Both the position numbers and the translations under genes were made by a program. A stretch of 62,965 nucleotides of DNA from Candidatus Altiarchaeota archaeon (GTDB lineage Archaea > Altiarchaeota > Altiarchaeia > IMC4 > SCGC-AAA252-I15). The notes under the pieces are model-generated. The model ran no database searches, was not told where the DNA came from, and saw only the letters and a program-made list of their open reading frames with translations. The stretch covers positions 1-62,965 of the forward strand of contig JBDRLL010000019.1 of assembly GCA_043813075.1 (NCBI GenBank), in the 5' to 3' direction. Positions 8,132 to 22,283 of the stretch are shown here, one piece after another; the first letter of the stretch is position 1, and every line of letters begins with the position of its first letter.

Positions 8132-9124
8132 ATGAAGGAAGTGAGGATCATACTTGTAGGGTTCGGGGTCATAGGCAGGGGTCTCGCGGAAACACTGCTC
8201 TGCAAGAGGAGGCCTCTCGCAGAGAATGGCGTTAAAATGAAGGTTGTTGCATTATGCGAGAAAAACGGCTCTGCAGTAAACCCGGACGGGCTAGACTTGA
8301 AGAAGGCGCTGAACGATGGCGTCGAATCCCTTGCAGAGTGGGGCGGCAGGAAGACGATGAACGTCATAGAGGACGTTAACGCAGACATCGTTGTGGAGCT
8401 CACGCCAGGTAGCATAAGTGATGGAGGAGTTGGCCTGAAGCACATAAGACAGGCTTTGAAGTCCGGGAAGAGCGTCGTGACTTCAAACAAGTCCCCGCTG
8501 GTCGTGGCATACGAGGAATTGACGGATCTCGCCGGCAGGGAAGGGCTCGAGCTAAAGTTCGAGGCGACGGTCTGCGGCGCCATACCCCTGATAAGCCTGT
8601 GCAAGAATCAGCTGAAGGCGAGCGGCATCAAGAACATACACGGAGTATTCAACGGGACGACCAACTACATACTCTCCAAGATGAGCGAGGAGGGCGTCGA
8701 GTTCGAAGCGGCCCTCAAGGAGGCTCAACTACTAGGATACGCTGAGACCAACCCAGAGTATGACGTGAAGGGTATAGACACTGCCGCGAAGGTTGTGATA
8801 CTCGCCAACTCCATACTCGGCTTGAACGCGAAATACTCTGACGTCACTGTGACAGGAGTCGACAAGATAACGAGCGAGTCCATCGAGCTTGCAGACAAAC
8901 ACGGGTACGTCATAAAACTGATAGGTGACGCCGCGAAACTTGAGGTCTCGCCCATGCTCGTCCCCAAAGACCATCCGTTGAACGTGAGTGGGACATTGAA
9001 TTCCGTGCTGATAGAGACTGACACTGCCGGGGACATAACACTTGTCGGCGCGGGAGCAGGACCTCTTGAAACATCGAGCGCGATCCTGTCAGACATTCTG
9101 GAAGTGGCCGGCAGGATGGGTTAG
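8132..9124 (+). CDS. hom: Homoserine dehydrogenase
   Basis: GFGVIG, VVTSNK, FEATVCGAIP, GVFNGTTNYIL, GYAE, DTAAKVVIL, GAGAG. Confidence 0.96.
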   Translation: MKEVRIILVGFGVIGRGLAETLLCKRRPLAENGVKMKVVALCEKNGSAVNPDGLDLKKALNDGVESLAEWGGRKTMNVIEDVNADIVVELTPGSISDGGVGLKHIRQALKSGKSVVTSNKSPLVVAYEELTDLAGREGLELKFEATVCGAIPLISLCKNQLKASGIKNIHGVFNGTTNYILSKMSEEGVEFEAALKEAQLLGYAETNPEYDVKGIDTAAKVVILANSILGLNAKYSDVTVTGVDKITSESIELADKHGYVIKLIGDAAKLEVSPMLVPKDHPLNVSGTLNSVLIETDTAGDITLVGAGAGPLETSSAILSDILEVAGRMG

Positions 9125-10485
9125 GCCTTGACTACTCCTTCCTTCCTGAGGATGTCCCGGAGATTCAGGACACTGAACGCAGCCCTCGTTATGCCCATGC
9201 TCCTGGTGTCCGCGTCTGTGCCAACAAGATAAAGGCCTTCTAGGGGGGTGTTAGGCCCTGGGAACTGAGATTTCATTGTTATCGCAGCCTTCTCAGGTAT
9301 AGTCACCTGAAGGTGCTCGAACTCTATGTGGCCTTCGATGCCCGGATGGGCGGCGCATATGGAGTCCCTCAGCGCCTTCTCCTCCGTCTTCACGTCGTCG
9401 GATACTATTCCAGTGAAAGCTACGAGAGTCCTGCCCTTCGGCGCGAAGGACTTGTTGTAGCTTGTCGTAGGCATCGCCCAGAACGACTTGCCCTCCTCGA
9501 ACCATATTTCACTGCCAACGTAATCGAAGTTCTTGAAGTCCTTGCCGAGGCCGAGCCATAGCGTTATGCTCTTGGTGGGCTCGAGAGTCTTGAGTTGTTC
9601 CACGTATTCCGGAGGCAGTTCCTTTGCCATCTTGGGCATTTCACTAGCGAACCCGGAATAGACTACCCTGCTGGATAAATACTCTTTTCTGCCGGCCCTA
9701 ACCCCTTTCACAACACCATCCTCTGTGATGAATCCGTCCACATCAACCTTTGTCTTTACGTCGACCATCCCCTTGGGGAAAGAGTATGTGACAGCGTCGC
9801 TTATGCTGCCGACACCCTGCCGGGGATAGGCCTGATGGTATGCGCCATGATAAGACACTAGCTTCTTCATCTTGCTTATCTGCCCGAAGATCCTGTCGCT
9901 CAGGTATTCGCTCTCGCTTTCGCTGAAATACCTCGCGCCCTTAAGCATCCTCCATGCGGGCGTCTCACTCATTGACTTCCCGCTCATGAAGTAGGAGAGG
10001 GTGTCTATGAACTTCCACGTCTTCGATGAGAGGTTGTACTCCTTCAGGTAGTCGTAGAGGCTCATGTTCGTGTCAGCCCAGCCGAAGATCGAGTATGTGA
10101 TGGACGCTCCGAGGATTCCTGTGAGCGTCATCCTATCCTTTCTCGGCAGCACGTCGAAGTTCACCCATGATGCGACAGTCCAAGGGAAGGGGACGAGCTT
10201 CTCGCTGGTCTTCACATAGTATTCACCGTAGGGGATGAATGAGGGCAGTATGTCGAAATATTCTTCCATAAAGACGGTGAGGGGACCATCGTCTACGTGG
10301 GTTATCGCGTGCGGCCCAGTGTCGACCTTGTATCCGTCAACCTCGTAGGTCCTAGCGTTCCCTCCCACATAACCTTCACGCTCCAGGACGAGGACCTTCT
10401 TCCCCTCCTTTGACAGCATTAGCGCAGAGAGCAGCCCACTGATGCCTGCCCCAACCACTATGGCGTCGTATTCCGCTTCTACCAT
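9121..10485 (-). CDS. Phytoene desaturase (CrtI)-like FAD-dependent oxidoreductase
   Basis: DAIVVGAGISGL...ER...GG, DTGPH, GLYLVGTD. Start trimmed to ATG 10485, which overlaps the carS stop. Confidence 0.85.
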   Translation of the reverse strand: MVEAEYDAIVVGAGISGLLSALMLSKEGKKVLVLEREGYVGGNARTYEVDGYKVDTGPHAITHVDDGPLTVFMEEYFDILPSFIPYGEYYVKTSEKLVPFPWTVASWVNFDVLPRKDRMTLTGILGASITYSIFGWADTNMSLYDYLKEYNLSSKTWKFIDTLSYFMSGKSMSETPAWRMLKGARYFSESESEYLSDRIFGQISKMKKLVSYHGAYHQAYPRQGVGSISDAVTYSFPKGMVDVKTKVDVDGFITEDGVVKGVRAGRKEYLSSRVVYSGFASEMPKMAKELPPEYVEQLKTLEPTKSITLWLGLGKDFKNFDYVGSEIWFEEGKSFWAMPTTSYNKSFAPKGRTLVAFTGIVSDDVKTEEKALRDSICAAHPGIEGHIEFEHLQVTIPEKAAITMKSQFPGPNTPLEGLYLVGTDADTRSMGITRAAFSVLNLRDILRKEGVVKA

Positions 10486-11000
10486 GGCTTCTTCTTCAAC
10501 TTCAGCATGTATGCGACGATGTTGGCTATAATATGCATCGGCGGACTTATTATACATGCGACAGCAAGGTACTGCAAGTTGACTGGGACGAGAATCCACA
10601 CGGCCATATAGGAGCCGAAGATGTAGTCGAGAGAGTCCAGGAGAACCAGCGGATGACCCCTGCCGAAACCCATCCTCCTCTTGATGAAGCTGGCTACCGA
10701 GTCGCCCACAAGGGCGCCGAATCCGAGCATTATCCCGAGGGAGGCGGTCATCTGGGGGAGCCATGGGCTACCGTACATCGACTGGAGCATTCCAGTCAGC
10801 CCGCCCGCCAGGCCGCCGAGTATGAGGCCCCTCCATGTTTTTCCGTCGCCGAGAATCCGCTTTCCTCTCCAGGATTTACCGAAGTCTATTGGAGTGGAGT
10901 AGTTCTTGATGACGGGTATGCCGGAGACGTCTATCGCTATCGAGTTCGCTACGTACGCAGGAAGGGTGAACCAGAACACATTAATTAAAACGTTGAGCAT
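10479..11000 (-). CDS. carS: CDP-archaeol synthase
   Basis: PAYVANS, PIDFG, LGDGKTWRG, GDSVASFIKRR, LDSLD; start at ATG 11000. Confidence 0.92.
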   Translation of the reverse strand: MLNVLINVFWFTLPAYVANSIAIDVSGIPVIKNYSTPIDFGKSWRGKRILGDGKTWRGLILGGLAGGLTGMLQSMYGSPWLPQMTASLGIMLGFGALVGDSVASFIKRRMGFGRGHPLVLLDSLDYIFGSYMAVWILVPVNLQYLAVACIISPPMHIIANIVAYMLKLKKKPW

Positions 11001-11028
11001 GATACTTATTTGTAAGCATATTCTTAAA

Positions 11029-13161
11029 ATGAAGTCGAGTCTACTGCGTTTGTCGGTCTTTCTTGGAGGATTCGCGTCCATACTAGTCCAGCTGACATTG
11101 CTGAGGGAGTTGATGAGCGTCTTCTATGGTAATGAGCTCGTATTCGGCATCGTCCTGGGGATGTGGGTCATGCTTACTGGAGTCGGCAGTCTGCTGGGCA
11201 TGAGGTTCGGAGAGTCTCTGGGGTTGAGGGCGTATTCCACCAGCCTCCTTGCCTCAGGGATGATCATACCAGCCACCGTCTTTGCGTCTAGGATTGTTAA
11301 TACAGTAACCCTTAACCCTGGCGAGATGATGGGGTTGACGCGCATAATAGCGTCGAGTGCCGGTGTGATGGGGGTGTACTGCATCATATACGGGCTTCAG
11401 ATTGTGTTGGCGTCCAGTATGCTTTCGAGGGAGTATGGTGTGAGGGGTGTCGGAGGGGGATATGTCCTGGACAATCTGGGTGACGTTTTCGGGGGATTCA
11501 TGTTCAGCATCCTGCTGGTGTATCTCCTTGATTCCACGCAAGTCTCCTACGTTGCCGCGATACTCTGTCTTGCAGCAGCCGTAGGAGCCTCTTACGGCAG
11601 GGACAGGACTGTGATCTCGTTATCATGCATCTTGATTGCCGCAGCCATCGCGTCATACGGCATCCTTGACCTGCAGTCAGCAGGCAACAGCATCTTGTTC
11701 AGTGGCCAGGAGGTAATGTTCCAGGAATACTCTCCCTATGGGAACATTGTCGTGACCAGTTTTGGCGGCCAGATAAATTTCTTTGAGAATAGTGTGCCAG
11801 TATACAGCACGCAAGATGTTGAGGGGGTAGAGGAGGTAGTGCATTACCCCATGTCCCAGGTGAGTGAAGGGGGTAGTGTATTGCTGGTTTCAGGGGGTTT
11901 CACTGGAGTCATAAGCGAGCTGTTGAAACACAAACCGCGTTCAGTAGACTATGTCGAACTGGATCCTACGATGATTGATGTAGTGAAAAAGTATGCTGGG
12001 GAGGGGATTTTCAGCGACAGTAGGGTCAGTGTCTTGAACACTGACGGACGCCTGTATGTTAAGCGGACGGACAGGGGTTATGACGCAGTCATCGTGAACC
12101 TCCCGGATCCGACGACCGCCCAGTTGAACAGGTTTTACACCATAGAATTCATGAGGGAGCTTAAGAGTGCGCTCAATCCAGGGGGGGTCGTATCCCTCAG
12201 CCTCTCTTCGTCAGAGAACTACATGAACGAGGATACCAGGAGGCTTAACGCAGTATTGTTCAGGACATTACGGGAGGCGTTTAAGAACGTGATTGTGATA
12301 CCTGGCGAGACGAACAGGTTCATAGCCTCAGACAGGGAGCTCAGCTACGACATAGGCCGGCTCCTCAGGGAGAGGGGAGTGGAAGCGGATTACGTGAACG
12401 AAGCGTATTTGAAGGGCGTCATAACGGAAGACCGTGTCGCATATGTCATGGAATCATTGGATGATGAGGGGGAAGTGTTGAACAGCGACTTCAAGCCCGT
12501 GGGATACTATTACCAGACGTCAAAATGGCTGGACATGTTTGGCACAAGCCCCGGCTGGATGGCGGCGGTAGTAGCGGTGATGATGGGGTTGGCCTACATG
12601 AGGCTTAAGCCTGTTTATTCCCCCGTGTTCTCCATCGGATTCGCGGGTATGACTCTGGAAGTCGCCTTGCTGATAGCCTTCCAGGCGATGTACGGCTCCA
12701 TATACCAGAAGCTGGGGATTGTGATAACATCGTTCATGGCAGGCGTAGTCCTGGGAGCGCATTACGCAAACAGGAGGGGTGGGTCGGATGGCGTGAGATT
12801 GCTGCGACGCACAGCTTATTCCATCACCGCATACTCCCTCATACTCCCCGCACTGCTCTCCACCATATCTATGGCGGACGACCAGTACCTTACGATGCTT
12901 TCATCAGGAGCATTATTCCCACTGCTGGCTGCACTGCTCGGAGCCCATGTGGGGGCCGTATTCCCTACCGCAACACTCCATGCAGTGGCTTCTGGAGATA
13001 AGCCGTCGGCTGCTGCGGGAAGGGTTTACTCGCTGGACCTGGCGGGGGCTTTTTTCGGGGCGATACTAGCGAGCACTATAATGATACCATTGTATGGGGT
13101 ATACTGGACCTGCTTTTTAACGGCAGCAATAAATTTATTAACCGCATTGAGGCTCAGGTAA
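11029..13161 (+). CDS. Membrane-embedded spermidine-synthase-like (class I SAM-binding) fusion protein
   Basis: N-terminal and C-terminal multi-TM domains around SPYGNIVV, EEVVHYPM, VLLVSGG, VELDP, DGR, NRFYTIEF, LNPGG; start at ATG 11029. Confidence 0.82.
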   Translation: MKSSLLRLSVFLGGFASILVQLTLLRELMSVFYGNELVFGIVLGMWVMLTGVGSLLGMRFGESLGLRAYSTSLLASGMIIPATVFASRIVNTVTLNPGEMMGLTRIIASSAGVMGVYCIIYGLQIVLASSMLSREYGVRGVGGGYVLDNLGDVFGGFMFSILLVYLLDSTQVSYVAAILCLAAAVGASYGRDRTVISLSCILIAAAIASYGILDLQSAGNSILFSGQEVMFQEYSPYGNIVVTSFGGQINFFENSVPVYSTQDVEGVEEVVHYPMSQVSEGGSVLLVSGGFTGVISELLKHKPRSVDYVELDPTMIDVVKKYAGEGIFSDSRVSVLNTDGRLYVKRTDRGYDAVIVNLPDPTTAQLNRFYTIEFMRELKSALNPGGVVSLSLSSSENYMNEDTRRLNAVLFRTLREAFKNVIVIPGETNRFIASDRELSYDIGRLLRERGVEADYVNEAYLKGVITEDRVAYVMESLDDEGEVLNSDFKPVGYYYQTSKWLDMFGTSPGWMAAVVAVMMGLAYMRLKPVYSPVFSIGFAGMTLEVALLIAFQAMYGSIYQKLGIVITSFMAGVVLGAHYANRRGGSDGVRLLRRTAYSITAYSLILPALLSTISMADDQYLTMLSSGALFPLLAALLGAHVGAVFPTATLHAVASGDKPSAAAGRVYSLDLAGAFFGAILASTIMIPLYGVYWTCFLTAAINLLTALRLR

Positions 13162-13162
13162 A

Positions 13163-14338
13163 ATGGAGGTCAGTATTCTAGTGGGATTCACCATCTGTCT
13201 CACACTGGCATTCCTTTTCTCGGAACTGTTCTACTCATTTAAGTATCCCCGGGTTGTGGGCCAGATTATCGCGGGGATAATACTGGGGCTCCCGTTCATC
13301 AAAGTCTACTTCGGGGAAGAATTCACGTCGTTCATAAGCTCACTGTCGGACATAGGAGTAGTATTCCTGCTGCTCCTCGTCGGCACTGAAGTGAAGGTTG
13401 ACGAACTGAGGAAGGTATCGAAGAGGGCAATCTATCTTGCAGTGCTAGGCTACATTATCCCTTTTACCATAGGATTTCTCGCCATGACGATGCTAAAGTT
13501 TGAGGCCCTATCCGCAGTGATAGTGGGCATATGCCTTGCCATAAGCGCTGAAGCGATAACCGTTGAAACACTGATTGAGTATAAGCTGCTAAACACAGAC
13601 GTCGGCGCGACCATAATGGAGGCTGGGATGATAGACGATTTCCTGGGGATATTCTCTCTCGCAGCCGTAATCGGGATAGCCCAGGGAGGGGGTATCGACT
13701 CCGTCAAAAGCATGCCTGGGGAATTCCTGACGTTCATAGCCATCGCATACATAATAGGTTTCACTATACTGCCAAAGGCGGCGAAGAAGGTGTGGAAGGA
13801 GAAGTCGGAGGCGGCGGTATTCAGTCTCGCAGTGATTTTCGGGCTGATAGTGGTCTTGCTGTCCAACATATTCGACTTGAGCTCTATTGTCGGGGCTTTT
13901 GTAGCCGGGATGATAATCCAGCTTTCCATAAAGAACAAGCGGGAGGAGCAGGAGATAGTCGAAAGCCTGGAGATAGTCACTTTCGGCCTTGTCATACCCT
14001 TTTTCTTCATATTCATCGGCATGAACTTCAACGTATTAAACTTTTTGGATGACCTGCCGTTCATACTTCTGCTGGTAACACTCGCCCTGTCAGGCAAGAT
14101 GATGGCAGCCCATATAATGGGCGCCAGGCATAAGATGGTGAATGTGGAGAGGACTCTCATCGGATGGGGGATAAACCCTAGGGGTGCTGTTGAGCTGGTG
14201 ATCGCGAGCATAGCACGGGCGAACGGACTCATATCGGGTGAAGTATTCTCTGCGATAATAGCGATGGCGGTGATAGCCGCCTTGGTGTCCCCAGTTATGT
14301 TCAGGCGGACTCTTTCCTCATGGAAGGACACTGGGTGA
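13163..14338 (+). CDS. Cation:proton antiporter (CPA2 family)
   Basis: PRVVGQIIAGIILG, MIDD, GAFVAG, PRGAVELVIA; about 12 TMs. Confidence 0.9.
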   Translation: MEVSILVGFTICLTLAFLFSELFYSFKYPRVVGQIIAGIILGLPFIKVYFGEEFTSFISSLSDIGVVFLLLLVGTEVKVDELRKVSKRAIYLAVLGYIIPFTIGFLAMTMLKFEALSAVIVGICLAISAEAITVETLIEYKLLNTDVGATIMEAGMIDDFLGIFSLAAVIGIAQGGGIDSVKSMPGEFLTFIAIAYIIGFTILPKAAKKVWKEKSEAAVFSLAVIFGLIVVLLSNIFDLSSIVGAFVAGMIIQLSIKNKREEQEIVESLEIVTFGLVIPFFFIFIGMNFNVLNFLDDLPFILLLVTLALSGKMMAAHIMGARHKMVNVERTLIGWGINPRGAVELVIASIARANGLISGEVFSAIIAMAVIAALVSPVMFRRTLSSWKDTG

Positions 14339-14400
14339 ACATTGTAGTCCGAGATACTTTACAGGATTTATTCCAGGGATACTAGATTTTATTGCCGACT

Positions 14401-15585
14401 ATGGAATCGGATGACAGTAACTTCCTGAATGAGAGGATTAGTAGGCGTGATTTCATTAAGAAGTCTGCGTTGGCCTTGGCGGGGGTTGGCCTTGGAGCCT
14501 ACGGGCTTGGGAGAATCCTCTCGAGGGGGAGGGTTGATGGTCTGTTGGGCAACTCGTCTTCAGTGAAGCCGGGTAAATGGAGTAGGGAGGCTTATTTCTA
14601 CGCCGGGCTTGGTGATTCGGCAAGGTGCCTTCTGTGCCCCAATGAGTGCATAGTGAAAGACGGTGAGAGGGGTGTGTGCAGGAGCAGGACTAGCGTCGGC
14701 GGCGTGCTCTACACTCTCGCGTACGGTAATCCCTGTTCCGTGCACGTGGATCCGATAGAGAAGAAGCCGTTATACCATTTTCTCCCTGAGTCGTCCTCCT
14801 TCTCGATAGCCACTGGAGGCTGCAATTTCCGCTGCCTAAACTGCCAGAACTGGAGCATAAGCCAGTATCCGCCGGACGAGCTGAAGAACTTCGACCTAAT
14901 GCCCGAAAAGGTTGTTGAAGCTGCGGCCAACAACAAGTGCGAGTCCATAGCCTACACATACTCTGAGCCGTCCACATTCTACGAGTACATGCATGACACC
15001 GCGAGTATTGCGGTCGAGCAAGGCATTAGGGGTGTGTGGGTGACTAACGGGTATTTGAACAGGGAGCCGCTCGAAAAGTTGTGCAAGGTCGTTCACGCGG
15101 CGAACGTGGACTTGAAGGCTTTTGACGATGGAGTCTACCTGAAGCTGACTTCAGGAAGGCTGCAGCCGGTGCTTGAGACACTGAAGACGCTGAAGGCTAA
15201 TGGCGTGTGGTTCGAGGTCACCAACCTGGTCGTGCCCTATTGGACGGATGACATGGGCATGATACGGGAGATGTGCGCCTGGCTGAAGAGGAATATCGGG
15301 CCTGATTATCCGCTGCACTTCAGCAGGTTCCACCCAGAATACAAGCTGACTAACCTGCCGCCAACGCCAACCAGCTTCCTGGAGTCAGCGTGGGATACAG
15401 CGAAAGACGAGGGGCTCAACCACGTGTACATAGGGAATGTCCCAGGCTCTGGGAAGCAGGACACGTACTGCCCTGACTGCGGTGGCGTAGTGATTCAACG
15501 GAGAGGTTATGAGGTATCAATCAAGGACTTTGAGGACGGTTACTGTGGCGGGTGCGGGGCCAGGATTGCGGGCGTCTGGAAGTGA
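14401..15585 (+). CDS. amrS: AmmeMemoRadiSam system radical SAM enzyme with twin-arginine (Tat) signal
   Basis: DPIEKKPLYHF, CNFRCLNC (CxxxCxxC), AYTYSEP, HFSRFHP, VYIGNV, C-terminal CxxC..CxxC; N-terminal SRRDFIKK followed by a hydrophobic stretch. Confidence 0.92.
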   Translation: MESDDSNFLNERISRRDFIKKSALALAGVGLGAYGLGRILSRGRVDGLLGNSSSVKPGKWSREAYFYAGLGDSARCLLCPNECIVKDGERGVCRSRTSVGGVLYTLAYGNPCSVHVDPIEKKPLYHFLPESSSFSIATGGCNFRCLNCQNWSISQYPPDELKNFDLMPEKVVEAAANNKCESIAYTYSEPSTFYEYMHDTASIAVEQGIRGVWVTNGYLNREPLEKLCKVVHAANVDLKAFDDGVYLKLTSGRLQPVLETLKTLKANGVWFEVTNLVVPYWTDDMGMIREMCAWLKRNIGPDYPLHFSRFHPEYKLTNLPPTPTSFLESAWDTAKDEGLNHVYIGNVPGSGKQDTYCPDCGGVVIQRRGYEVSIKDFEDGYCGGCGARIAGVWK

Positions 15586-15586
15586 C

Positions 15587-16363
15587 TCACAGTATCATGT
15601 ACGCCGCGTAAATGTTCCATAAGACCATTATCACGCCAAAGAGCAGCAGGGAGAGGGATATGAGTCGTCTGATGTATATTATGCTTAACTCCACCTTCGT
15701 CCTGCCAGCGTATATGCCGACTAGTATGAAGGGCATCATGAACAGGGAGAAGAGCAGTACGGACAAGTCTATGAAGCCGAGTGCCGCGAGCAGGATACAC
15801 CTGAACAACGAGTCGTAAAATAGGAATGAAGAGGATGTGGAGTCTATGACCTCCGTCGCATCACCATACTTCCCTGAAAGATGCATGAACAGGGGGGGCC
15901 TGCTGAATGCGAACATGCCTCCGGATACGCCAGCCAGGAATATGGTTTTCAGACTGGATTTCCCAGGCTTTGAATGGACGGGTTTCTTGGATATCCGATT
16001 CAAAAGCCGGCCATTGGACAGGTAATCGTATGATGATGCTATTATCAGGAGGCCCAGGAGTATGAGCAGCACCTCATCGTATATCAGCCACAATAGCATG
16101 CATCCTGTGAACGTGCCGAAGAGCATGACATTCAAGTCCCTCTTGACCGGACCCATGTCAGCCCTCTTGGGGATCCGATGGTAGTTGACGTAGGACATCA
16201 CAAAGTCGACGAGCGAGACGACCGCCACCATAACCTTGACTCCCAGAAACACTGCAGCAATGGGTATCGCGAATATCACTGCACTGTAGATGCCAAGCCC
16301 CTCGATGAAATATCCTAGAAGAAGCGTAAGGCCCAGTACGAACGTGAGTTCGGGCGAAGGCAT
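15587..16363 (-). CDS. TauE/SafE-family (sulfite exporter-like) membrane protein
   Basis: GYFIEGLGI, AGVSGGMF...PP internal repeat; about 8 TMs, 258 aa. Confidence 0.7.
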   Translation of the reverse strand: MPSPELTFVLGLTLLLGYFIEGLGIYSAVIFAIPIAAVFLGVKVMVAVVSLVDFVMSYVNYHRIPKRADMGPVKRDLNVMLFGTFTGCMLLWLIYDEVLLILLGLLIIASSYDYLSNGRLLNRISKKPVHSKPGKSSLKTIFLAGVSGGMFAFSRPPLFMHLSGKYGDATEVIDSTSSSFLFYDSLFRCILLAALGFIDLSVLLFSLFMMPFILVGIYAGRTKVELSIIYIRRLISLSLLLFGVIMVLWNIYAAYMIL

Positions 16364-16390
16364 AAAATAATATAAGACTCGGTGTTAATT

Positions 16391-16400
16391 AAAAAAAAAA
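16391..16400 (-). terminator. Oligo-T (T10) archaeal-type terminator
   Basis: A10 on + strand, 6 bp after the stop of the minus-strand SemiSWEET gene. Confidence 0.5.
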
Positions 16401-16406
16401 GCCGGG

Positions 16407-16679
16407 TTACTGGTATATGAATGCGCCCAATGCGATTGATGACTGCAGGATGACTAGAAGCAGGAACATTACTGCTATCGGCCTGTCCTTCTTGAGGATC
16501 CCGTAGGCCAGCCAGATTAGCGACAACAGTGCGAACAATGTCCAGGAGAGGGCTGAAACGCCTGAAGCGTTTTTCCCGACCCATATCCGCAGTAGTTGGG
16601 GTATGTTGGCTAACGGCGAGACAACCGCAAGATAGATTATGATTCGTTCGAACGAATGCAATAGCTTTTCACTGTCCAT
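16407..16679 (-). CDS. SemiSWEET / PQ-loop family transporter
   Basis: IPQLLRIW..K...GVS, WLAYGIL..D.PI; 3 TMs, about 90 aa. Confidence 0.85.
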   Translation of the reverse strand: MDSEKLLHSFERIIIYLAVVSPLANIPQLLRIWVGKNASGVSALSWTLFALLSLIWLAYGILKKDRPIAVMFLLLVILQSSIALGAFIYQ

Positions 16680-16715
16680 CAAGTAGATTATTATTCGCGA
16701 GAGTAAATTAGTTAC

Positions 16716-17198
16716 ATGCAGAGGAGGGAGTTGGAGGATCTGAGGAACAGGTTCTGGAGCGACATCGAAGGGGAGATACAGTCCCGGGCCGGGCGGAAAG
16801 ACAAGTCCTTCAGGCTAAGGGGAAAGTGGAAGAAGTACGTGAGGAGACAGTCCGGCTACAGGATTTATTCAGTTGACAGCAGGTGGATACGCGACAACCT
16901 CTGCGTCTACTTCAGCCACGGAGGGCACGGCCTCGTCCACGAGTTCATACCAGTCGACGAGATATGGGTAAGTTCACACCACTACTATGAAGGCGAGAAC
17001 ACCCTGGCGCACTGCGTCTGCAGGGTCAGGAAGAAGGGCATGAGGGTCTCGAAAAACTATTTCGAGAGCACAGTCATACACGAGATCACGGAGATAGAGG
17101 AGATGAAGAAGGGGAAAAGCTACCAGCAAGCACACAGGATAGCCCTGAGGAAAGAGGAGGAGATAGGCCTCATATCAGACCCCTTCAGCGACCCGTAA
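16716..17198 (+). CDS. Hypothetical protein with HExxE...Y..AH putative metal-binding motif
   Basis: Purine-rich coding-like ORF; IHEITEIEEMKKGKSYQQAH, GGHG, IPVDEIWV. Confidence 0.7.
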   Translation: MQRRELEDLRNRFWSDIEGEIQSRAGRKDKSFRLRGKWKKYVRRQSGYRIYSVDSRWIRDNLCVYFSHGGHGLVHEFIPVDEIWVSSHHYYEGENTLAHCVCRVRKKGMRVSKNYFESTVIHEITEIEEMKKGKSYQQAHRIALRKEEEIGLISDPFSDP

Positions 17199-17202
17199 AA
17201 AT

Positions 17203-17287
17203 GCGGGTTGGACAATCTCCCTGGATATGGACTACATCTTTTTATTGGAGTACGTCCCTTGATTTGACATACTCTACTTCAACCCGC
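17203..17287 (-). ncRNA. Candidate structured RNA element (three-way junction) between convergent genes
   Basis: GCGGGTTG(17203-10)/CAACCCGC(17280-87) closing stem; inner stems 17248-56/17266-74 and 17224-28/17234-38, whose mismatches become G.U pairs on the minus strand. Confidence 0.35.
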
Positions 17288-17328
17288 CGAAACAAAAAAC
17301 GTAACCCTATGGAAGGATTACGACAGAT

Positions 17329-17988
17329 TTATGCCGCCATGCTCTCATCGAAGGTTAGATTCGATTCCATCATCTGTGATTGGCCTCTGTTGAGCTCGTA
17401 TTTCACACCGCCTTGCGTCAGGTCCATGCTGGCGAAGCGTTCGACAACAACAGAACCGTCTGGCCGCGCCATGACGTTGGTGACGTTGTCTCCGCGGGGA
17501 TGGGATTCGCCTTCGACTGGCGTGTCGAAGTCGGAGTATATGTTTTTGAAGCCGTGGTCGGCGAGTATCCTAGCGTAGTCCTCACGCATGTCGGGTCTGC
17601 CGTCGCCCTTCACCAGGTACGCGAGCGTGTCGCCGGCAGTAGAGTATCTCTTCCACTCGTCGAGCAGGGCGGCGACATGGTGTGATGGATGCGCGTGGGC
17701 GACGCCCACCAGCCTCCTGGAAGGGTCTATCAGGATTAGGTGCGTGCAACTGGATGCTGAGATGGACTTGACGTTGGAGCCGCGGACAAATATGGCCTCC
17801 CCCTCCTCGACTTCCAGGGGATCACGAGTGCCCTCCGGACTCAATCCCACTATCTCCGACTTCTCCATGCGGGCGCTGGATGAAGCCGGGAACTTGAAGA
17901 ATAACGCGGTTCCAGGCTGGATTATCCTCGGCTGGATTTCTCCGACAGAAGCGTCAGAACGGCCAGTATGAACACCCTCCCTTAGCAT
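17329..17988 (-). CDS. CheD/CNF1/YfiH-fold putative deamidase
   Basis: EVEEGE ... SASSCTHLILID...VGVAHAH ... AYLVKG ... LADHGF..IYSD ... DGSVVV follows the CheD pattern (Cys-His dyad). Confidence 0.55.
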   Translation of the reverse strand: MLREGVHTGRSDASVGEIQPRIIQPGTALFFKFPASSSARMEKSEIVGLSPEGTRDPLEVEEGEAIFVRGSNVKSISASSCTHLILIDPSRRLVGVAHAHPSHHVAALLDEWKRYSTAGDTLAYLVKGDGRPDMREDYARILADHGFKNIYSDFDTPVEGESHPRGDNVTNVMARPDGSVVVERFASMDLTQGGVKYELNRGQSQMMESNLTFDESMAA

Positions 17989-18013
17989 GTTAGATGATTA
18001 GGTGTTACTAGAA

Positions 18014-19312
18014 TTAATGCTTGGGCTTCTTTAGCAGCAGCGCTATTCCAGCAGCCAGGAGACATGCAACGCCCGCTATCAGGAAGGGCGTCATCCACGC
18101 GGACACCTGACCTGCCGCAGCATCCTTGAAGTAGCCAGCCACCTGCGGCCCCGCTATGCCAGCAACGCCGTAGGAGAGGAAGACGTAGCCGTAGTTGACG
18201 CCCACCGTCTTGTTCCCGAAGAAGTCGGCTGTCGCAGCAGGGAACAGCGCGAAGTTCCCGCCGAAATTGAATCCAATAATGCATGCGCCCACAATCAAGC
18301 CGATCTCGCTTGAACCCAGCTTGTAGAACAAAAGCATGACCACACCCTGCAGCAGGCACATGAGGAACAAAGACGTCTTCCTGCCAAGCTTGTCTGAGAC
18401 AGCGCCCCATACGATGCGGCCCAGACCGTTTAGTATCGCATACCATGCCATCGCAGTGCCTGCGACCACGCCAGCATCCTTGGCGTTCGCCACAGCTCCG
18501 CTCGCCACCAGAGCGTCTATGCCAAACAACTGGATGCAGTATATGACCATGAGGCCCGCCAGGGCGGAGCACAGGAACATTATGAATAGCATGAAGAACT
18601 GCGGGGTCCTAAGCATCTCGCCGCTCGACAGGTTGACTGAGCCGGATGCTTTTGTTGTGCCTGAATCCTTGGGCGGCTCCCAACCAGCAGGCTTATATCC
18701 TTCAGGCGGGTTCACCATCACTATGCTGCCCACCATCACAAGCAGTAGGAATGCGGCACCGTATATCACGAAGACGCTCTGCACGCCAGGCAGGCCAAAA
18801 ACGTTGGTGACGTTCAAGAGACCGCCAAACCAGCTGCCAGCCAGCTTAACCCAGATTGTAGCTCCGAAACCGAATCCTGCGACAGCGAGGCCTGTTATCA
18901 TGCCCTTCTTGTCTGGGAACCACTTGACGCCGACAGCTATGGGCACCACATAGCCGAGGCCGATGCCAGCGCCGCCGACAATCCCTATGAAGAAGAGTTG
19001 GGAGATGAATGATGTCCCGAAGAATCCGCCGAGAATGTATCCGACGCCAAGCACTATGCCGCCAGCCATCGCTATCGGCCGCGGGCCTATCTTAGCCTGC
19101 ATGCGGCCTGCCGCAACCATGACGACCGCGAACGTGGCGAGTCCCGCTGAGAATATCCACGCAGCCTCAGTGGCAGTGAATCCGTATATTCCGCCATTTT
19201 CGAGGGGCATTGTCAGCCGGCCAGTGAACACACTCCAACTGTATATGGCCCCGAGACAGAGTTGTATGAGAACAGCGCCTATTACAACCAGCCACCTGTT
19301 TTTTATCTTCAT
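18014..19312 (-). CDS. OFA (oxalate:formate antiporter) family MFS transporter
   Basis: QLCLGAIYSWSVF, KWFPDKKG..TGLAVAGFG, NGLGRIVWG.VSDKLGR, ADFFG. Confidence 0.93.
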   Translation of the reverse strand: MKIKNRWLVVIGAVLIQLCLGAIYSWSVFTGRLTMPLENGGIYGFTATEAAWIFSAGLATFAVVMVAAGRMQAKIGPRPIAMAGGIVLGVGYILGGFFGTSFISQLFFIGIVGGAGIGLGYVVPIAVGVKWFPDKKGMITGLAVAGFGFGATIWVKLAGSWFGGLLNVTNVFGLPGVQSVFVIYGAAFLLLVMVGSIVMVNPPEGYKPAGWEPPKDSGTTKASGSVNLSSGEMLRTPQFFMLFIMFLCSALAGLMVIYCIQLFGIDALVASGAVANAKDAGVVAGTAMAWYAILNGLGRIVWGAVSDKLGRKTSLFLMCLLQGVVMLLFYKLGSSEIGLIVGACIIGFNFGGNFALFPAATADFFGNKTVGVNYGYVFLSYGVAGIAGPQVAGYFKDAAAGQVSAWMTPFLIAGVACLLAAGIALLLKKPKH

Positions 19313-19376
19313 CTTTTCGGAGTAGAATATATTTACGGGGTGCTTTAAAAGTATTATATTATAGGTGGGTGGTTTT

Positions 19377-20882
19377 ATGGCAAGCTTGATGAGGAGCAGG
19401 AGGAAGGCTGATACCGACGCGATACTGCTCCTGGGATTTTTGGTGATACTCGCAGTCTTCGCCTACAAAGTGTACACTCAAGGCAGCATGGTGGTGTGGA
19501 ATAAGGCAGTTGAGGATGGTGATGTGCCTGGGAAAACGGTGGTTGCCGTAAGGAAGCCTGTTGTGGCGGGAGCGTTCTACCCGTCAGACCCGGGGAAACT
19601 CGCCGCAATGATAGACGAGTATCTGGGGAAGGCGAAGAAGTCTGACGCCTACGGTATCAGAGGACTAGTGTCGCCGCACGCAGGATACGTATACTCCGGG
19701 CCAACCGCGGCATACGGCTACAAGCAACTGGAAGGCATGAGGTATGAGACGGTTATCGTGATGGGGCCATCCCACAGGCACGGATTCAAGGGAGCTTCAA
19801 TACCAAACGTCACGCACTATGAGACTCCGCTGGGGCTGGTGGAATTGTCGCCGAAGATAAGTGAAATGTATGGGGAGGACGTTATAGTCTGCGAGACCAA
19901 TGCCCATGCGGGAGAGCACTCGGTTGAAGTCCAGATCCCGTTCCTCCAGCGAGTCCTCCAGAAATTCAAGCTGATACCGATAGTCGTCGGGGACATAGAC
20001 CCCGAAAAACTAGCTGAAGCATTGGAGAAATACGTTGACGAGGACACACTGATAATAGCGAGCACCGACCTATCGCACTACCACCAGTACGACGATGCTG
20101 TGGGGATGGATGATGAGACAGTCAAAGCGGTTGCTGCATTGGACTTCGAAGCCATGAGAGAATGCGAGGCATGCGGGAAGACTCCGACGCTCGCGCTAAT
20201 GAGCATCGCGGAGAAGAATGGTTGGGGTAGTGAAGTGCTTGACTACCGGAACTCCGGCGACACTGCGGGAGACAATTCCAGTGTCGTGGGGTACGCATCC
20301 ATCGCATTCTACGATGGCCTCGATATGGAAGAGCAGGAATTCCTGGTGGAGCTTGCGAGAGAGACGCTTAACTCCCACTACGCTGACGGCAGCCTACCTG
20401 AAGTCGACGAGTCACAGCTGACAGACAAACTGGAGAGGGAGTCCGCGTGCTTTGTGACCCTGCACAAGCACGGAGACCTGAGGGGATGCATCGGGCACTT
20501 GTCTGCCATGGAGCCACTCTACGAGTGCGTCATCCAGAATGCGTTGAACGCCGCACTACACGACGGGAGATTCAATCCGGTTAAATGGGATGAACTAGAG
20601 GATCTGGACATTGAAGTGTCAGTTCTGAGCGAACCCAGGATACTGCCGCATGAAAGCCCGGAAGACCTTCTGGAGAAGCTTGTCCCAGGCACCGACGGCG
20701 TTGTCATAAAATACGGTTGGGGTCAGAGCACTTACCTGCCGGTAGTATGGGAGCAGCTGCCTGAAAAAGAGGATTTCCTAAACCGACTCTGCCTGAAGCA
20801 GGGAAGCCCTGAAGACTGCTGGAAGAGCAGCAAGGCAGAGATATACACGTACCAGGCCCAGGACTTCTCGGAAGTTCACTGA
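19377..20882 (+). CDS. amrB: Fused AmmeMemoRadiSam protein B (MEMO1) + protein A (AMMECR1) with N-terminal TM anchor
   Basis: MEMO motifs VAGAFYP, PHAGYVYSG, GPSH, EHSVEVQIPF, STDLSHY, ACG, VVGY; AMMECR1 motifs ACFVTL, LRGCIG, DGRF, IEVSVL; hydrophobic AILLLGFLVILAVFAY near the N-terminus. Confidence 0.93.
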   Translation: MASLMRSRRKADTDAILLLGFLVILAVFAYKVYTQGSMVVWNKAVEDGDVPGKTVVAVRKPVVAGAFYPSDPGKLAAMIDEYLGKAKKSDAYGIRGLVSPHAGYVYSGPTAAYGYKQLEGMRYETVIVMGPSHRHGFKGASIPNVTHYETPLGLVELSPKISEMYGEDVIVCETNAHAGEHSVEVQIPFLQRVLQKFKLIPIVVGDIDPEKLAEALEKYVDEDTLIIASTDLSHYHQYDDAVGMDDETVKAVAALDFEAMRECEACGKTPTLALMSIAEKNGWGSEVLDYRNSGDTAGDNSSVVGYASIAFYDGLDMEEQEFLVELARETLNSHYADGSLPEVDESQLTDKLERESACFVTLHKHGDLRGCIGHLSAMEPLYECVIQNALNAALHDGRFNPVKWDELEDLDIEVSVLSEPRILPHESPEDLLEKLVPGTDGVVIKYGWGQSTYLPVVWEQLPEKEDFLNRLCLKQGSPEDCWKSSKAEIYTYQAQDFSEVH

Positions 20883-21346
20883 ACCAGCTCTATGTCGGTG
20901 CTGGCCTTGGCGATGATCTTTTTGCCCTGAATGACTTCAAGCCTTAGCGTATAGTTACCAGCGCGTATTCCGGAACACGTGTTGCATGACGGGAGCATGT
21001 GGCTGACCGACAGTGTATTAGCGCCTTCAGATAGGTTGGCCTTGAATTTCTCGTCCAGCCGGTTGGTGGGGTGCTCACTACCCTGGCGTATGCCATAGAC
21101 GAACACCCACACTTCACCCACATCCCTGTTGGAGACTATGGAGAACGAGAGGTTCATAAGCTCCTTGGACTTGTAGAGTCCCTTGTCGGTGGCGAAAGAC
21201 GCTACTTTCACCACAGTCTTCCCCTTGGACGCGGAAACAGTTGACGTTGTCTTCGACTGGATTGTTGAAGATGTCGTGGCTGGGCTGTCAGAGATGCATC
21301 CTACAAGAAACACGAGCATCGTGAATATGGCAAACGAGTTGCGCAT
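20876..21346 (-). CDS. Putative lipoprotein (Ig-like domain after S/T linker)
   Basis: Lipobox LVGC, Ser/Thr linker, CxxC, GNYTL beta-sandwich-like end. Confidence 0.7.
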   Translation of the reverse strand: MRNSFAIFTMLVFLVGCISDSPATTSSTIQSKTTSTVSASKGKTVVKVASFATDKGLYKSKELMNLSFSIVSNRDVGEVWVFVYGIRQGSEHPTNRLDEKFKANLSEGANTLSVSHMLPSCNTCSGIRAGNYTLRLEVIQGKKIIAKASTDIELVQ

Positions 21347-21377: not shown

Positions 21378-22283
21378 TCAGATGCTGAACTCGAGTCCTG
21401 ACACCAGCGCAAAGACCCGCACGACATCGTCTGGCATCGACTCGGATATGTTTGAGAACCATAGTATGCTTGACTTCGGCGCTACTGAAGTCACGATGTC
21501 AAGTGCGTTGGACATCTCGGTGAAAGGCTCCTTGGATTCGGCGGTGAATGACAGTAGCACTCCAGACGCGGTTGTTATGTCCCGGAAGAACATGGGACTC
21601 ATCAATGCTGATTCCACAGCCTCCCTGGCACTCCCCCCCTCGCCAGAGCCTATCAGCGCCATTCCAGTGAAAAGGCTCCTCGAGGCGACCTCGTTCCTCA
21701 CTGAAACGTTTATCAGATTCCTCACGGCATCCAAGACCAGGCTGTTGACCGCTGAAAACGAATCCCTTATGGAAGAGCCCTGCGTCACCGTGACGAGCTT
21801 GTCGTTGTCTATCACAACTATCATGTCGCAGAAAGACTGGAGGTCTTCGAGGGCCGAATACGAGTTACTCGCGCAAACCTTCCCCTCAACAGAGAAGGGA
21901 AGGTTGACCAGCGCGACGACGACGCAGCCGATGCTCTTAGCAGCCTCCGCGACAACAGGAGTGGCGCCGGCACCGGTCCCACCCCCAATCCCGGCTGTTA
22001 TGAAGACTATGTCCGCGCCAGACATAAGGGACTTTATGCGGTCATACTCCTCACGGGCAGCCTTCTCACCCAGCAGTATGCTGTTGCCGGTACTCTGGCC
22101 GCCGGTAGTGTTGCGGCCTAGGAGTAGTTTGGAGGATACCTTTGAATTCAGCAGGTTGAGTGCGTCAGTGTTCATTGCTATGTAGCCGCAGCCTATGCAC
22201 CCTGAAGACTGTATGTTCTCCACGGTACTGCATCCGCTGCCGCCTACGCCAACCACCTTTATGCTAGGAACCCTGTCAGCCAG
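21378..22283 (-). CDS. Divergent FtsZ/tubulin-family GTPase (probable CTG start)
   Basis: IKVVGVGGSG, AMNTD, AGIGGGTGAGATP, PFSVEG, IDNDKL; T7 loop motif absent. Confidence 0.85.
   Translation of the reverse strand: MADRVPSIKVVGVGGSGCSTVENIQSSGCIGCGYIAMNTDALNLLNSKVSSKLLLGRNTTGGQSTGNSILLGEKAAREEYDRIKSLMSGADIVFITAGIGGGTGAGATPVVAEAAKSIGCVVVALVNLPFSVEGKVCASNSYSALEDLQSFCDMIVVIDNDKLVTVTQGSSIRDSFSAVNSLVLDAVRNLINVSVRNEVASRSLFTGMALIGSGEGGSAREAVESALMSPMFFRDITTASGVLLSFTAESKEPFTEMSNALDIVTSVAPKSSILWFSNISESMPDDVVRVFALVSGLEFSI

Follow-up and report, generated by a model that had tools for sequence, protein, structure and literature searches.

Radical S-adenosylmethionine (SAM) enzymes are treated as strictly cytoplasmic, since their chemistry requires SAM, a low-potential electron and iron-sulphur (Fe-S) clusters that are protected. 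One of them, AmrS, is the radical SAM component of AmmeMemoRadiSam, a system that includes prokaryotic relatives of human MEMO1 (AmrB) and AMMECR1 (AmrA) and that has had no known function ever since its definition. Here we describe an AmmeMemoRadiSam locus in a 62,965-nucleotide stretch of DNA (the window; contig JBDRLL010000019.1, positions 1 to 62,965, assembly GCA_043813075.1) from a Candidatus Altiarchaeota archaeon. Our preferred reading, to which we give a probability of about 0.58, is that this locus encodes an accessory, extracytoplasmic paralogue of the system, in which a membrane protein that fuses a major facilitator superfamily (MFS) transporter to a spermidine synthase (SpeE)-like domain acts as a service dock for SAM and, in some lineages, for electrons.

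The neighbourhood of AMMECR1, a radical SAM enzyme and a ring-opening dioxygenase was noted by Aravind and co-workers together with AMMECR1-dioxygenase fusions, who proposed RNA base modification by way of a radical on the conserved cysteine (PMC2034487). The 'Memo-Ammecr1 systems' of Burroughs et al. 2019 are cited in a passage of PMC7159879. Among the titles, abstract beginnings and passages of the literature searched, we found no twin-arginine translocation (Tat) signal on AmrS, no exported radical SAM enzyme and no MFS-SpeE partner; Burroughs et al. 2019, which lay outside that search, may hold some of these associations. No relevant literature on MFS/spermidine synthase fusions was found by title or abstract beginning, and in passages of the HXS paper the one Tat signal mentioned belongs to a CueO signal-peptide construct that was tried on HxsA. 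On many AmrS homologues the Tat motif is probably flagged already by automatic database features. The abstract of the Burroughs study is said to link Memo contexts to nucleotide-base and isoprenoid modification.

Like the described AmmeMemoRadiSam systems, the window encodes proteins that pass the TIGR04335, TIGR04336 and TIGR04337 models well above cut-off, and the radical SAM motif is intact. The window differs from them in that every soluble component has an export or anchor signal and AmrB and AmrA are fused, and this variant adds a fourth dedicated component, the MFS-SpeE fusion. AmrS and AmrB-AmrA lie on the same strand about 3.8 kb apart, so that all three AmmeMemoRadiSam components stand together:

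11029-13161, plus strand: fused MFS/SpeE-like membrane protein, 710 amino acids (Spermine_synth PF01564, 84.5 bits; NF037959)
14401-15585, plus strand: AmrS, AmmeMemoRadiSam radical SAM enzyme (TIGR04337, 341.4 bits, cut-off 220; PF04055)
14401-14541, plus strand: predicted Tat signal region of AmrS, residues 1-47 (TIGR01409 and sequence)
19377-20882, plus strand: AmrB (Memo)-AmrA (AMMECR1) fusion (TIGR04336, 261.2 bits; TIGR04335, 203.1 bits)
19377-19490, plus strand: predicted signal-anchor of AmrB-AmrA (basic tail MASLMRSRRKADTD, then hydrophobic AILLLGFLVILAVFAYKVY)

Export signals on AmrS and AmrB-AmrA

AmrS starts at TTG 14392 or ATG 14401, and both possible starts lie upstream of its twin arginines (codons AGG CGT, 14443-14448); the stop side is at 15585. 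Its N-terminus consists of an n-region, the motif SRRDFIKK, a Gly/Ala-rich h-region (SALALAGVGLGAYGLG) and a basic stretch, RILSRGR. SRRDFIKK fits the twin-arginine consensus S/T-R-R-x-F-L-K near the N-terminus, and residues 16-38 match the TIGR01409 TAT_signal_seq model with 23.5 bits against a cut-off of 16.7. The window AmrS had no reported match to the Pfam model TAT_signal (PF10518), which is precomputed for only 2 of 120 homologues. A basic c-region after a moderately hydrophobic h-region is a known feature of Tat signals, and AmrS has both elements in that order. Inspection of the signal region revealed no obvious A-x-A cleavage site after the h-region, so AmrS would probably be left anchored. 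Uncleaved Tat signal-anchors occur on Tat-exported Fe-S proteins such as Rieske proteins; AmrS is like these in combining an Fe-S cargo with a twin-arginine signal that suggests an N-terminal anchor, and differs from them as a radical SAM enzyme that needs SAM and a low-potential electron.

Twin arginines (RR) were found within the first 60 residues in 112 of the 120 best among at least 8000 database homologues of AmrS, mostly as S/T-R-R-[DE]-F-[IL]-K-K, which argues that the signal is not a chance feature of the window. Three of the other eight are N-terminally short, and five have RK, RM or KR in place of RR. R15 and R16 are invariant in an alignment of 55 AmrS sequences, whose rows were picked for having RR, as are C141, C145 and C148 of the cluster motif CNFRCLNC (CX3CX2C). 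The sources of the homologues include metagenome-assembled genomes (MAGs) of Methanofastidiosia, Theionarchaea, Altiarchaeota, Woesearchaeota, Nanoarchaeota and Aenigmarchaeota. As predicted from these sequences, the Tat signal of AmrS is a conserved family trait.

The AmrB-AmrA protein opens MASLMRSRRKADTDAILLLGFLVILAVFAYKVY, that is, with the basic tail MASLMRSRRKADTD followed by a single transmembrane (TM) helix, AILLLGFLVILAVFAYKVY, and its ATG is preceded by GGTGG at ribosome-binding-site spacing. By the positive-inside rule this N-terminus reads as a predicted N-in, C-out anchor. Memo/TIGR04336 covers residues 63-315 (cut-off 26) and AMMECR1/TIGR04335 residues 326-501 (cut-off 99). In genomes of the window's own order, an N-terminal hydrophobic stretch is present in 6/6 AmrB-AmrA genes found in the loci examined: with a basic tail in four loci (L102, L103, L104 and L112; handles of this kind denote individual loci), as a hydrophobic stretch alone in L117, and with a lipobox in L113. 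The N-termini of AmrB-AmrA in bacterial loci are of a short type like those of the general secretory (Sec) pathway, or carry a lipobox.

The first-pass annotation of this DNA had proposed a Tat signal on AmrS and a fused MEMO1-AMMECR1 protein with a basic N-terminus and one TM helix. Both proposals stand, the former on the canonical motif and the TIGR01409 match, the latter on the two models passed and the tail and helix just described, and the coordinates it gave for the two open reading frames (ORFs) are correct.

The host genome (1.80 Mb in 41 contigs, 89% complete) has neighbouring genes for TatC (183.8 bits) and TatA (61.1 bits) on contig C38. It also contains a separate, dispersed and leaderless set: a 345-residue AmrS on C41 that begins MREALLYDK, Memo in a 274-residue frame on C22 and AMMECR1 in a 213-residue frame on C35. 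The window set is therefore a paralogue of an ordinary cytoplasmic set and not the organism's only copy. A motif scan of the genome returned four other convincing Tat-motif ORFs (C10:153080-154195, C12:963-2693, C14:5125-6876 and C37:20584-22539), of which one encodes a TPR protein, one resembles a trypsin-like peptidase at a score below cut-off, and two have no clear match. Since no cofactor enzyme family is matched by any of the four above the curated Pfam cut-off, AmrS may be the main cofactor-bearing Tat cargo in this genome. In three MAGs tatC itself adjoins the AmrS cassette, namely in an Altiarchaeota (L035, 9132-9839), an Aenigmatarchaeota (L012, 11453-12151) and an Omnitrophota (L051, 13681-13965) genome.

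Recurrence of the cassette across genomes

One genome per species was scanned, and the best 80 of at least 599 matches were taken as a locus set. These loci come mostly from anaerobic bacterial MAGs (Bacteroidales, Ignavibacteriota, Desulfobacterales, Verrucomicrobiota, Omnitrophota and others), so that the surface pathway of an archaeon proposed by the first-pass annotation is not specific to archaea. Twelve window proteins were compared by blastp with the ORFs of the 80 loci, and the ORFs of the loci were clustered all against all. By blastp the SpeE-like membrane protein was present in 43 loci and AmrB-AmrA in 50; by clustering, the sole families besides AmrS in more than 12 loci were AmrB-AmrA (49) and the SpeE-like protein (47). 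The usual bacterial order, on one strand, is AmrB-AmrA, SpeE-like protein, AmrS, and the three genes are adjacent in many of the loci.

A similar association was seen closer to the window. In 17 loci from genomes of its own order, the SpeE-like gene lies beside a Tat-type AmrS in 13, and the other four are on contigs of at most 8.5 kb. We also compared 41 genomes of this order, which are kin and incomplete, so that their counts are descriptive rather than a test. A leaderless-type AmrS match (starting near query residue 60, 40-48% identity) was found in 41/41, one of them partial, versus a Tat-type match (48-66% identity, with its start no later than residue 29 or truncated by a contig end) in 18/41. 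The exported form thus appears to be an accessory system of patchy distribution. The SpeE-like protein occurs in 18 of these genomes: 16 have it together with Tat-type AmrS, two have Tat-type AmrS only, two the SpeE-like protein only, and 21 neither. Of the 18 genomes with Tat-type AmrS, 17 encode a fused AmrB-AmrA.

The N-termini of AmrS in the 80 loci were classed automatically as RR (36), KR (16), RK (2), other hydrophobic (7) or none (19), assignments that inspection by eye changed to KR/RR for L017, L030, L031 and L071 and qualified for L058 (AmrS resembling an over-extended ORF), L081 (cut by a contig end) and L087 (ambiguous). KR-type AmrS (S/N-K-R-E-F-[IL]-K) forms a large clade, mainly of Bacteroidota (for example L011, L018, L025 and L029). 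Where AmrB could be classified beside a Tat-like AmrS, it has a hydrophobic or signal N-terminus in 27 of 28 loci, and in the exception (L056) a contig end truncates AmrB; no Tat-like AmrS was paired with an intact leaderless AmrB-AmrA in the 80 loci. Beside a leaderless AmrS, with AmrB evaluable in 14 loci, AmrB is leaderless in five and signal-bearing in nine. By eye, some of the nine are less clear: L017 has a weak KR type, AmrB of L039 looks like an over-extended ORF, L043 is unclear, and in L072 an exon-like ORF with the TM anchor is parted from AmrS by a frameshift. The SpeE-like gene follows the AmrS class, with 37/54 for Tat-like, 3/7 for other hydrophobic and 3/19 for leaderless AmrS, and flanks are short in several of the Tat-like loci without it.

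A quick maximum-likelihood tree of AmrS catalytic cores (IQ-TREE) placed 12 leaderless Bacteroidota AmrS in one group (Shimodaira-Hasegawa-like approximate likelihood ratio test, SH-aLRT, 83) within a clade of 36 rows (SH-aLRT 97), the other 24 of which are Tat-like. None of the 12 has a SpeE-like neighbour, and the three earliest branches of the group (L049, L062 and L089) keep a signal on AmrB-AmrA. The group looks as if it had returned to the cytoplasm secondarily, with the AmrS signal and the SpeE-like gene as the first losses.

Tat-bearing AmrS, signal-bearing AmrB-AmrA and the SpeE-like fusion therefore recur jointly across genomes, and the view that the membrane SpeE-like protein is a partner of AmrS is borne out by its presence in 43/80 loci and beside Tat-type AmrS in 13/17 relatives. 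The further proposal that all three activities lie outside the membrane fits the genomic and comparative data, being consistent with the presence of tatA and tatC, the family-wide Tat motif and the predicted signals on the partners.

The MFS-SpeE protein and its predicted docking on AmrS

The product of 11029-13161 passes NF037959, 'fused MFS/spermidine synthase', with 47.4 bits against a cut-off of 40. An AlphaFold2 model built with 37 homologues (predicted local distance difference test, pLDDT, 91.3; predicted template modelling score 0.91) has TM1-7 at residues 2-212, a SpeE fold at 228-502 in a central loop, predicted to face outwards, and TM8-14 at 508-708. Foldseek matched the SpeE fold to aminopropyltransferases alone in the PDB (1uir_A, E 3e-12), and a Foldseek-independent structure search gave the same entry with Z 29.1 (root-mean-square deviation, rmsd, 3.0; 279 residues aligned), the N-terminal beta domain included. 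In that search the whole membrane part aligned with VMAT2 (9kqa_A, Z 30.3, rmsd 3.4, 337 aligned), followed by VAChT (Z 29.0), SotB (Z 26.8), OxlT (Z 26.4) and NorA (Z 25.9).

The termini of MFS transporters are cytoplasmic, and the helix layout here is 6+1/1+6 with the SpeE domain between two extra central helices. Lys and Arg residues per loop, averaged over the family, number 1.2, 2.9, 2.4, 2.5, 1.6, 3.3 and 2.3 in the loops assigned to the inside and 1.1, 1.0, 0 and 0.7 in the resolved outside loops, with two adjacent helix pairs merged. A natural fusion bears on the same point: in a Syntrophales MAG (L082, 6095-9664) MFS-SpeE is extended to 1189 residues by one more TM helix, an FMN_bind domain (PF04205) with the flavinylation-type motif LSGATIT and a NapH-like Fer4_5 domain (PF12801). 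Eight TM helices, counted by eye, separate the SpeE fold from FMN_bind, which puts the two on the same side, and in NapH-like proteins the N-terminal FMN-binding domain lies outside the cytosol according to PMC8238504. Given the MFS layout, the loop counts and this fusion, the modelled SpeE-like domain would face outwards.

The NF037959 proteins and the membrane 'polyamine aminopropyltransferases' of PRK03612 type resemble the window protein in joining an MFS part to a complete SpeE fold; the window protein differs from them in its failed SpeE equivalog models and the unconserved catalytic Asp and GGGDG acid, and is tied to AmrS by synteny, co-occurrence and predicted docking. Its SpeE-like domain keeps E310 in 35/37, D339 in 37/37 and E297 in 37/37 homologues; E310 and D339 correspond to the adenosyl-binding acids of SpeE. 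No conserved acid is present at the GGGDG position, where the window has SGGFTG, and the positions of the catalytic Asp vary (residue 357 is D in 5/37; residue 360 is D or E in 23/37 and P in 11/37; in place of the D-S-S-D-P motif with its catalytic Asp pair the window has NLPDP). Since the binding acids are kept and the GGGDG acid and catalytic Asp are not conserved, the domain looks like a nucleoside-binding one that has lost aminopropyl transfer. A role as the housekeeping spermidine synthase was ruled out by these motifs and by the equivalog models, all of which failed (PRK03612, 140.2 versus 472; PRK00811, 86.9 versus 260; TIGR00417, 75 versus 249.55); the single PF01564 match elsewhere in the genome is marginal (27.6 bits).

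For the complex prediction we used AmrS residues 56-394 and residues 213-507 of the SpeE-like domain with our own alignments. The pair scored 0.86, versus 0.00 for the best of three controls; 58 of 80 solved complexes and 2 of 110 mismatched pairs reach that score, a calibration that is rough for runs with our own alignments. Three runs share at least 80% of contacts, with a partner pLDDT of at least 81. On AmrS the interface comprises C112, H115, D117, P118, K121, N150, Y187 and the HP..L.PP stretch at 311-326, and on the other side a nearly invariant Y398 loop rests against AmrS residues 112, 113 and 187 near the cluster and SAM motifs. No solved complex of SpeE with a radical SAM enzyme, which the model might have memorised, is known to us. 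This prediction supports, rather than shows, binding of the SpeE-like domain to a conserved face of AmrS.

In our preferred reading AmrS would fold and gain its Fe-S clusters in the cytoplasm, cross the membrane through Tat and probably stay tethered by its uncleaved signal-anchor, and AmrB-AmrA would be inserted N-in, C-out by its own signal-anchor with both catalytic domains outside. The 14-TM MFS transporter would hold its adenosyl-binding, catalytically divergent SpeE-like domain in the central outward loop, where it would dock on the conserved active-site face of AmrS. SAM would leave the cell through the MFS part, which might also take 5'-deoxyadenosine or methionine back up, and the SpeE-like domain would hold the nucleoside at AmrS and hand off SAM. 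Electrons would come from transmembrane redox modules, which in some lineages are fused to MFS-SpeE as in L082, and AmrS would work with AmrB-AmrA on a substrate of the envelope or the surroundings. What the sequences and models show are the families and motifs, their conservation, the synteny and co-occurrence of the genes, the folds and a docking prediction in support; the export of AmrS, the topology of the proteins, the transport and hand-off of SAM, the electron source and the substrate are the parts of this reading that we infer.

The electron source has leads in other genomes. The extended MFS-SpeE of L082 shares FMN_bind, Fer4_5 and a flavinylation-type motif with the NosR/NapH-like flavinylated conduits described in PMC8238504, the main text of which contains no occurrence of radical SAM, Memo, AMMECR1 or spermidine. 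Ten MFS-SpeE proteins of Bacteroidales (L018, L020, L023, L025, L027, L030, L032, L038, L041 and L042) have a conserved, His-rich extension of three TM helices in their first ~115 residues, and small membrane ORFs lie upstream of AmrS in L012 (7601-7888), L065 (9357-9725) and L067 (8901-9209). Both kinds have sub-threshold Pfam matches of cytochrome b561 type (best 22.4 bits versus a cut-off of 30.1); as a lead only, they may be haem-b electron carriers. Two NapH-like Fer4_5 proteins are encoded elsewhere in the host genome, unlinked to the cassette.

An exported system could also work with a different role for the membrane protein. AmrS would then pass through Tat with SAM already bound, and each molecule would either activate AmrA a single time, in the manner of PflA, or keep SAM as a cofactor that is regenerated; MFS-SpeE, in place of supplying SAM, would export or modify a substrate, for example of amine or polyamine type, or be a protein substrate or scaffold of AmrS. 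We regard this as unlikely, yet worth keeping in view. Tat carries folded, cofactor-loaded proteins, and among characterised radical SAM enzymes the nearest to AmrS by hidden Markov model are the glycyl-radical activases of the PflA family. AmrS scores far below the cut-offs of these models, however (TIGR02493, PFLA, 45.2 versus 231.75; TIGR02494, 29.8 versus 174.35; YjjW, 46.9 bits), and no glycyl-radical enzyme was found in the cassette. A single enzyme molecule per activation would moreover be wasteful. The best structural neighbours of the MFS part, VMAT2 and VAChT, are amine/cation transporters, but its Z-scores of 21-30 are similar across many MFS families, so no substrate can be called from them. 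The contacts of the Y398 loop also fit a protein-substrate relation, whereas the retention of the adenosyl-binding acids and the loss of the transfer residues fit binding better than catalysis.

Several observations weigh against the service-dock reading itself. The structural neighbours of the MFS part point to no particular substrate here either. The predicted interface is no more conserved than the rest of either protein (0.744 versus 0.743 for AmrS, 0.42 versus 0.45 for the SpeE domain), so conservation adds no support to the docking, and the AmrS face of family-wide motifs is probably a general face for partners or substrates. No electron-transfer module was found in the window, and the genome, 89% complete, yielded no FMN_bind match; the fusion in L082 is the sole case among the 80 loci, and the AmrS of that locus is leaderless despite the fused module. 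Leaderless AmrS is paired with signal-bearing AmrB-AmrA in L049, L062, L089, L082 and L088 (L043 being unclear) and with the SpeE-like protein in L080 and L082, so co-localisation is not universal. Fused AmrB-AmrA is also present in seven related genomes without Tat-type AmrS, and the fusion alone is therefore no mark of export. The seven AmrS N-termini classed as hydrophobic without RR, two of which (L030 and L031) are KR/RR by eye, raise the matter of Sec-type export, which is hard to reconcile with Fe-S clusters. Finally, basic charge is higher after the h-region of AmrS (RILSRGR) than before it, which without Tat would favour a C-in orientation.

This last point, together with the leaderless AmrS in otherwise similar cassettes of some relatives, would suit membrane-tethered proteins that face the cytoplasm, with the RR N-terminus of AmrS as an anchor or a remnant of chaperone binding and the chemistry at the inner face, where radical SAM enzymes normally reside and SAM and reductant are available. 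We consider such an arrangement quite improbable. S/T-R-R-x-F-[IL]-K and a weakly hydrophobic, Gly/Ala-rich h-region are conserved across the 112 RR-bearing homologues, and the basic c-region is itself a feature of Tat signals. The short Sec-type and lipobox signals of bacterial AmrB-AmrA are not reverse anchors, the MFS layout puts the SpeE-like domain, the predicted partner of AmrS, on the outside, and tatC is adjacent to the cassette in three loci.

Neighbouring genes and meaning of a proposed exported system

Around the core genes the window contains the following features:

10479-11081, minus strand: CDP-archaeol synthase, CarS (NF003114, 169.4 bits)
13163-14338, plus strand: CPA2 cation/proton antiporter (family match)
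15587-16363, minus strand: TauE (family match)
16407-16682, minus strand: SemiSWEET (family match)
16716-17198, plus strand: ORF of 160 amino acids, no Pfam/NCBIfam match
17329-17988, minus strand: ORF of 219 amino acids, no Pfam/NCBIfam match
18014-19312, minus strand: OFA/L-lactate-type MFS transporter (NCBIfam L-lactate MFS model, 347.2 bits, cut-off 320)
20876-21346, minus strand: ORF of 156 amino acids with a lipobox-like LVGC N-terminus (sequence)
21378-22256, minus strand: short FtsZ-family paralogue, 292 amino acids (TIGR00065, 207.9 bits, below the cut-off of 295)

The CPA2, TauE, SemiSWEET and OFA genes are interleaved with the core genes, the last three on the other strand between AmrS and AmrB-AmrA, and the first-pass annotation had suggested that they could supply SAM or substrate or import product. 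The arrangement is shared by the same-genus relative, and 3/17 relatives' loci have OFA close to the cassette. However, in the 80 loci blastp found CPA2, TauE and SemiSWEET in none and OFA in one. Among the 17 relatives' loci, CPA2 stands between the SpeE-like gene and AmrS in the same-genus genome alone, TauE is nearby in two (one split, one weak) and SemiSWEET in none, and OFA, by passing the L-lactate MFS model, points to ordinary monocarboxylate transport. Because they do not recur across the 80 loci, these four genes look like incidental neighbours on comparative grounds, and a functional place for them in the pathway is very improbable. The split TauE homologue of the same-genus relative (L102, 10056-11360) comprises ORFs of 81 and 338 residues and is possibly a pseudogene or an assembly error.

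The remaining neighbours, CarS, both family-less ORFs, the lipoprotein-like ORF and the FtsZ-like gene, likewise had no blastp match in the 80 loci. The two family-less ORFs also lack a blastp homologue in the 17 relatives' loci, and since the same-genus locus has the gene order of the window without them, they look like a strain-specific insertion. The LVGC-lipobox ORF and the FtsZ-like gene adjoin the cassette in that relative too, and the FtsZ-like gene also does so in L106. Divergent from the MFS-SpeE gene, on the minus strand at 9121-11081, are CarS and an amine-oxidase/CrtI-like oxidoreductase dependent on flavin adenine dinucleotide (~449 residues from an internal Met). CarS keeps this position in 4/17 relatives' loci (L102, L103, L106 and L109), which may reflect synteny within the lineage or point to a connection with lipids.

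If SAM export is confirmed, it would be a dedicated means by which prokaryotes bring SAM to the outer side of their membrane, of which we know no earlier description, though no search aimed at one was made. A widespread, conserved cassette in which a radical SAM enzyme and both of its partners carry export signals challenges the view that these enzymes are confined to the cytoplasm, as does a companion transporter with a SAM-type binding domain predicted to face outwards. The exported variant would narrow the search for the AmmeMemoRadiSam substrate to the envelope or the surroundings, and it names a testable fourth component. More broadly, and tentatively, at less than even odds, many anaerobic bacteria and archaea may run radical SAM chemistry outside the cell membrane, with a catalytically dead SpeE-like dock that captures exported SAM for AmrS and that some lineages wire for electrons. 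If true, the service dock would represent a new principle, a cofactor-delivery dock for an extracytoplasmic radical enzyme.

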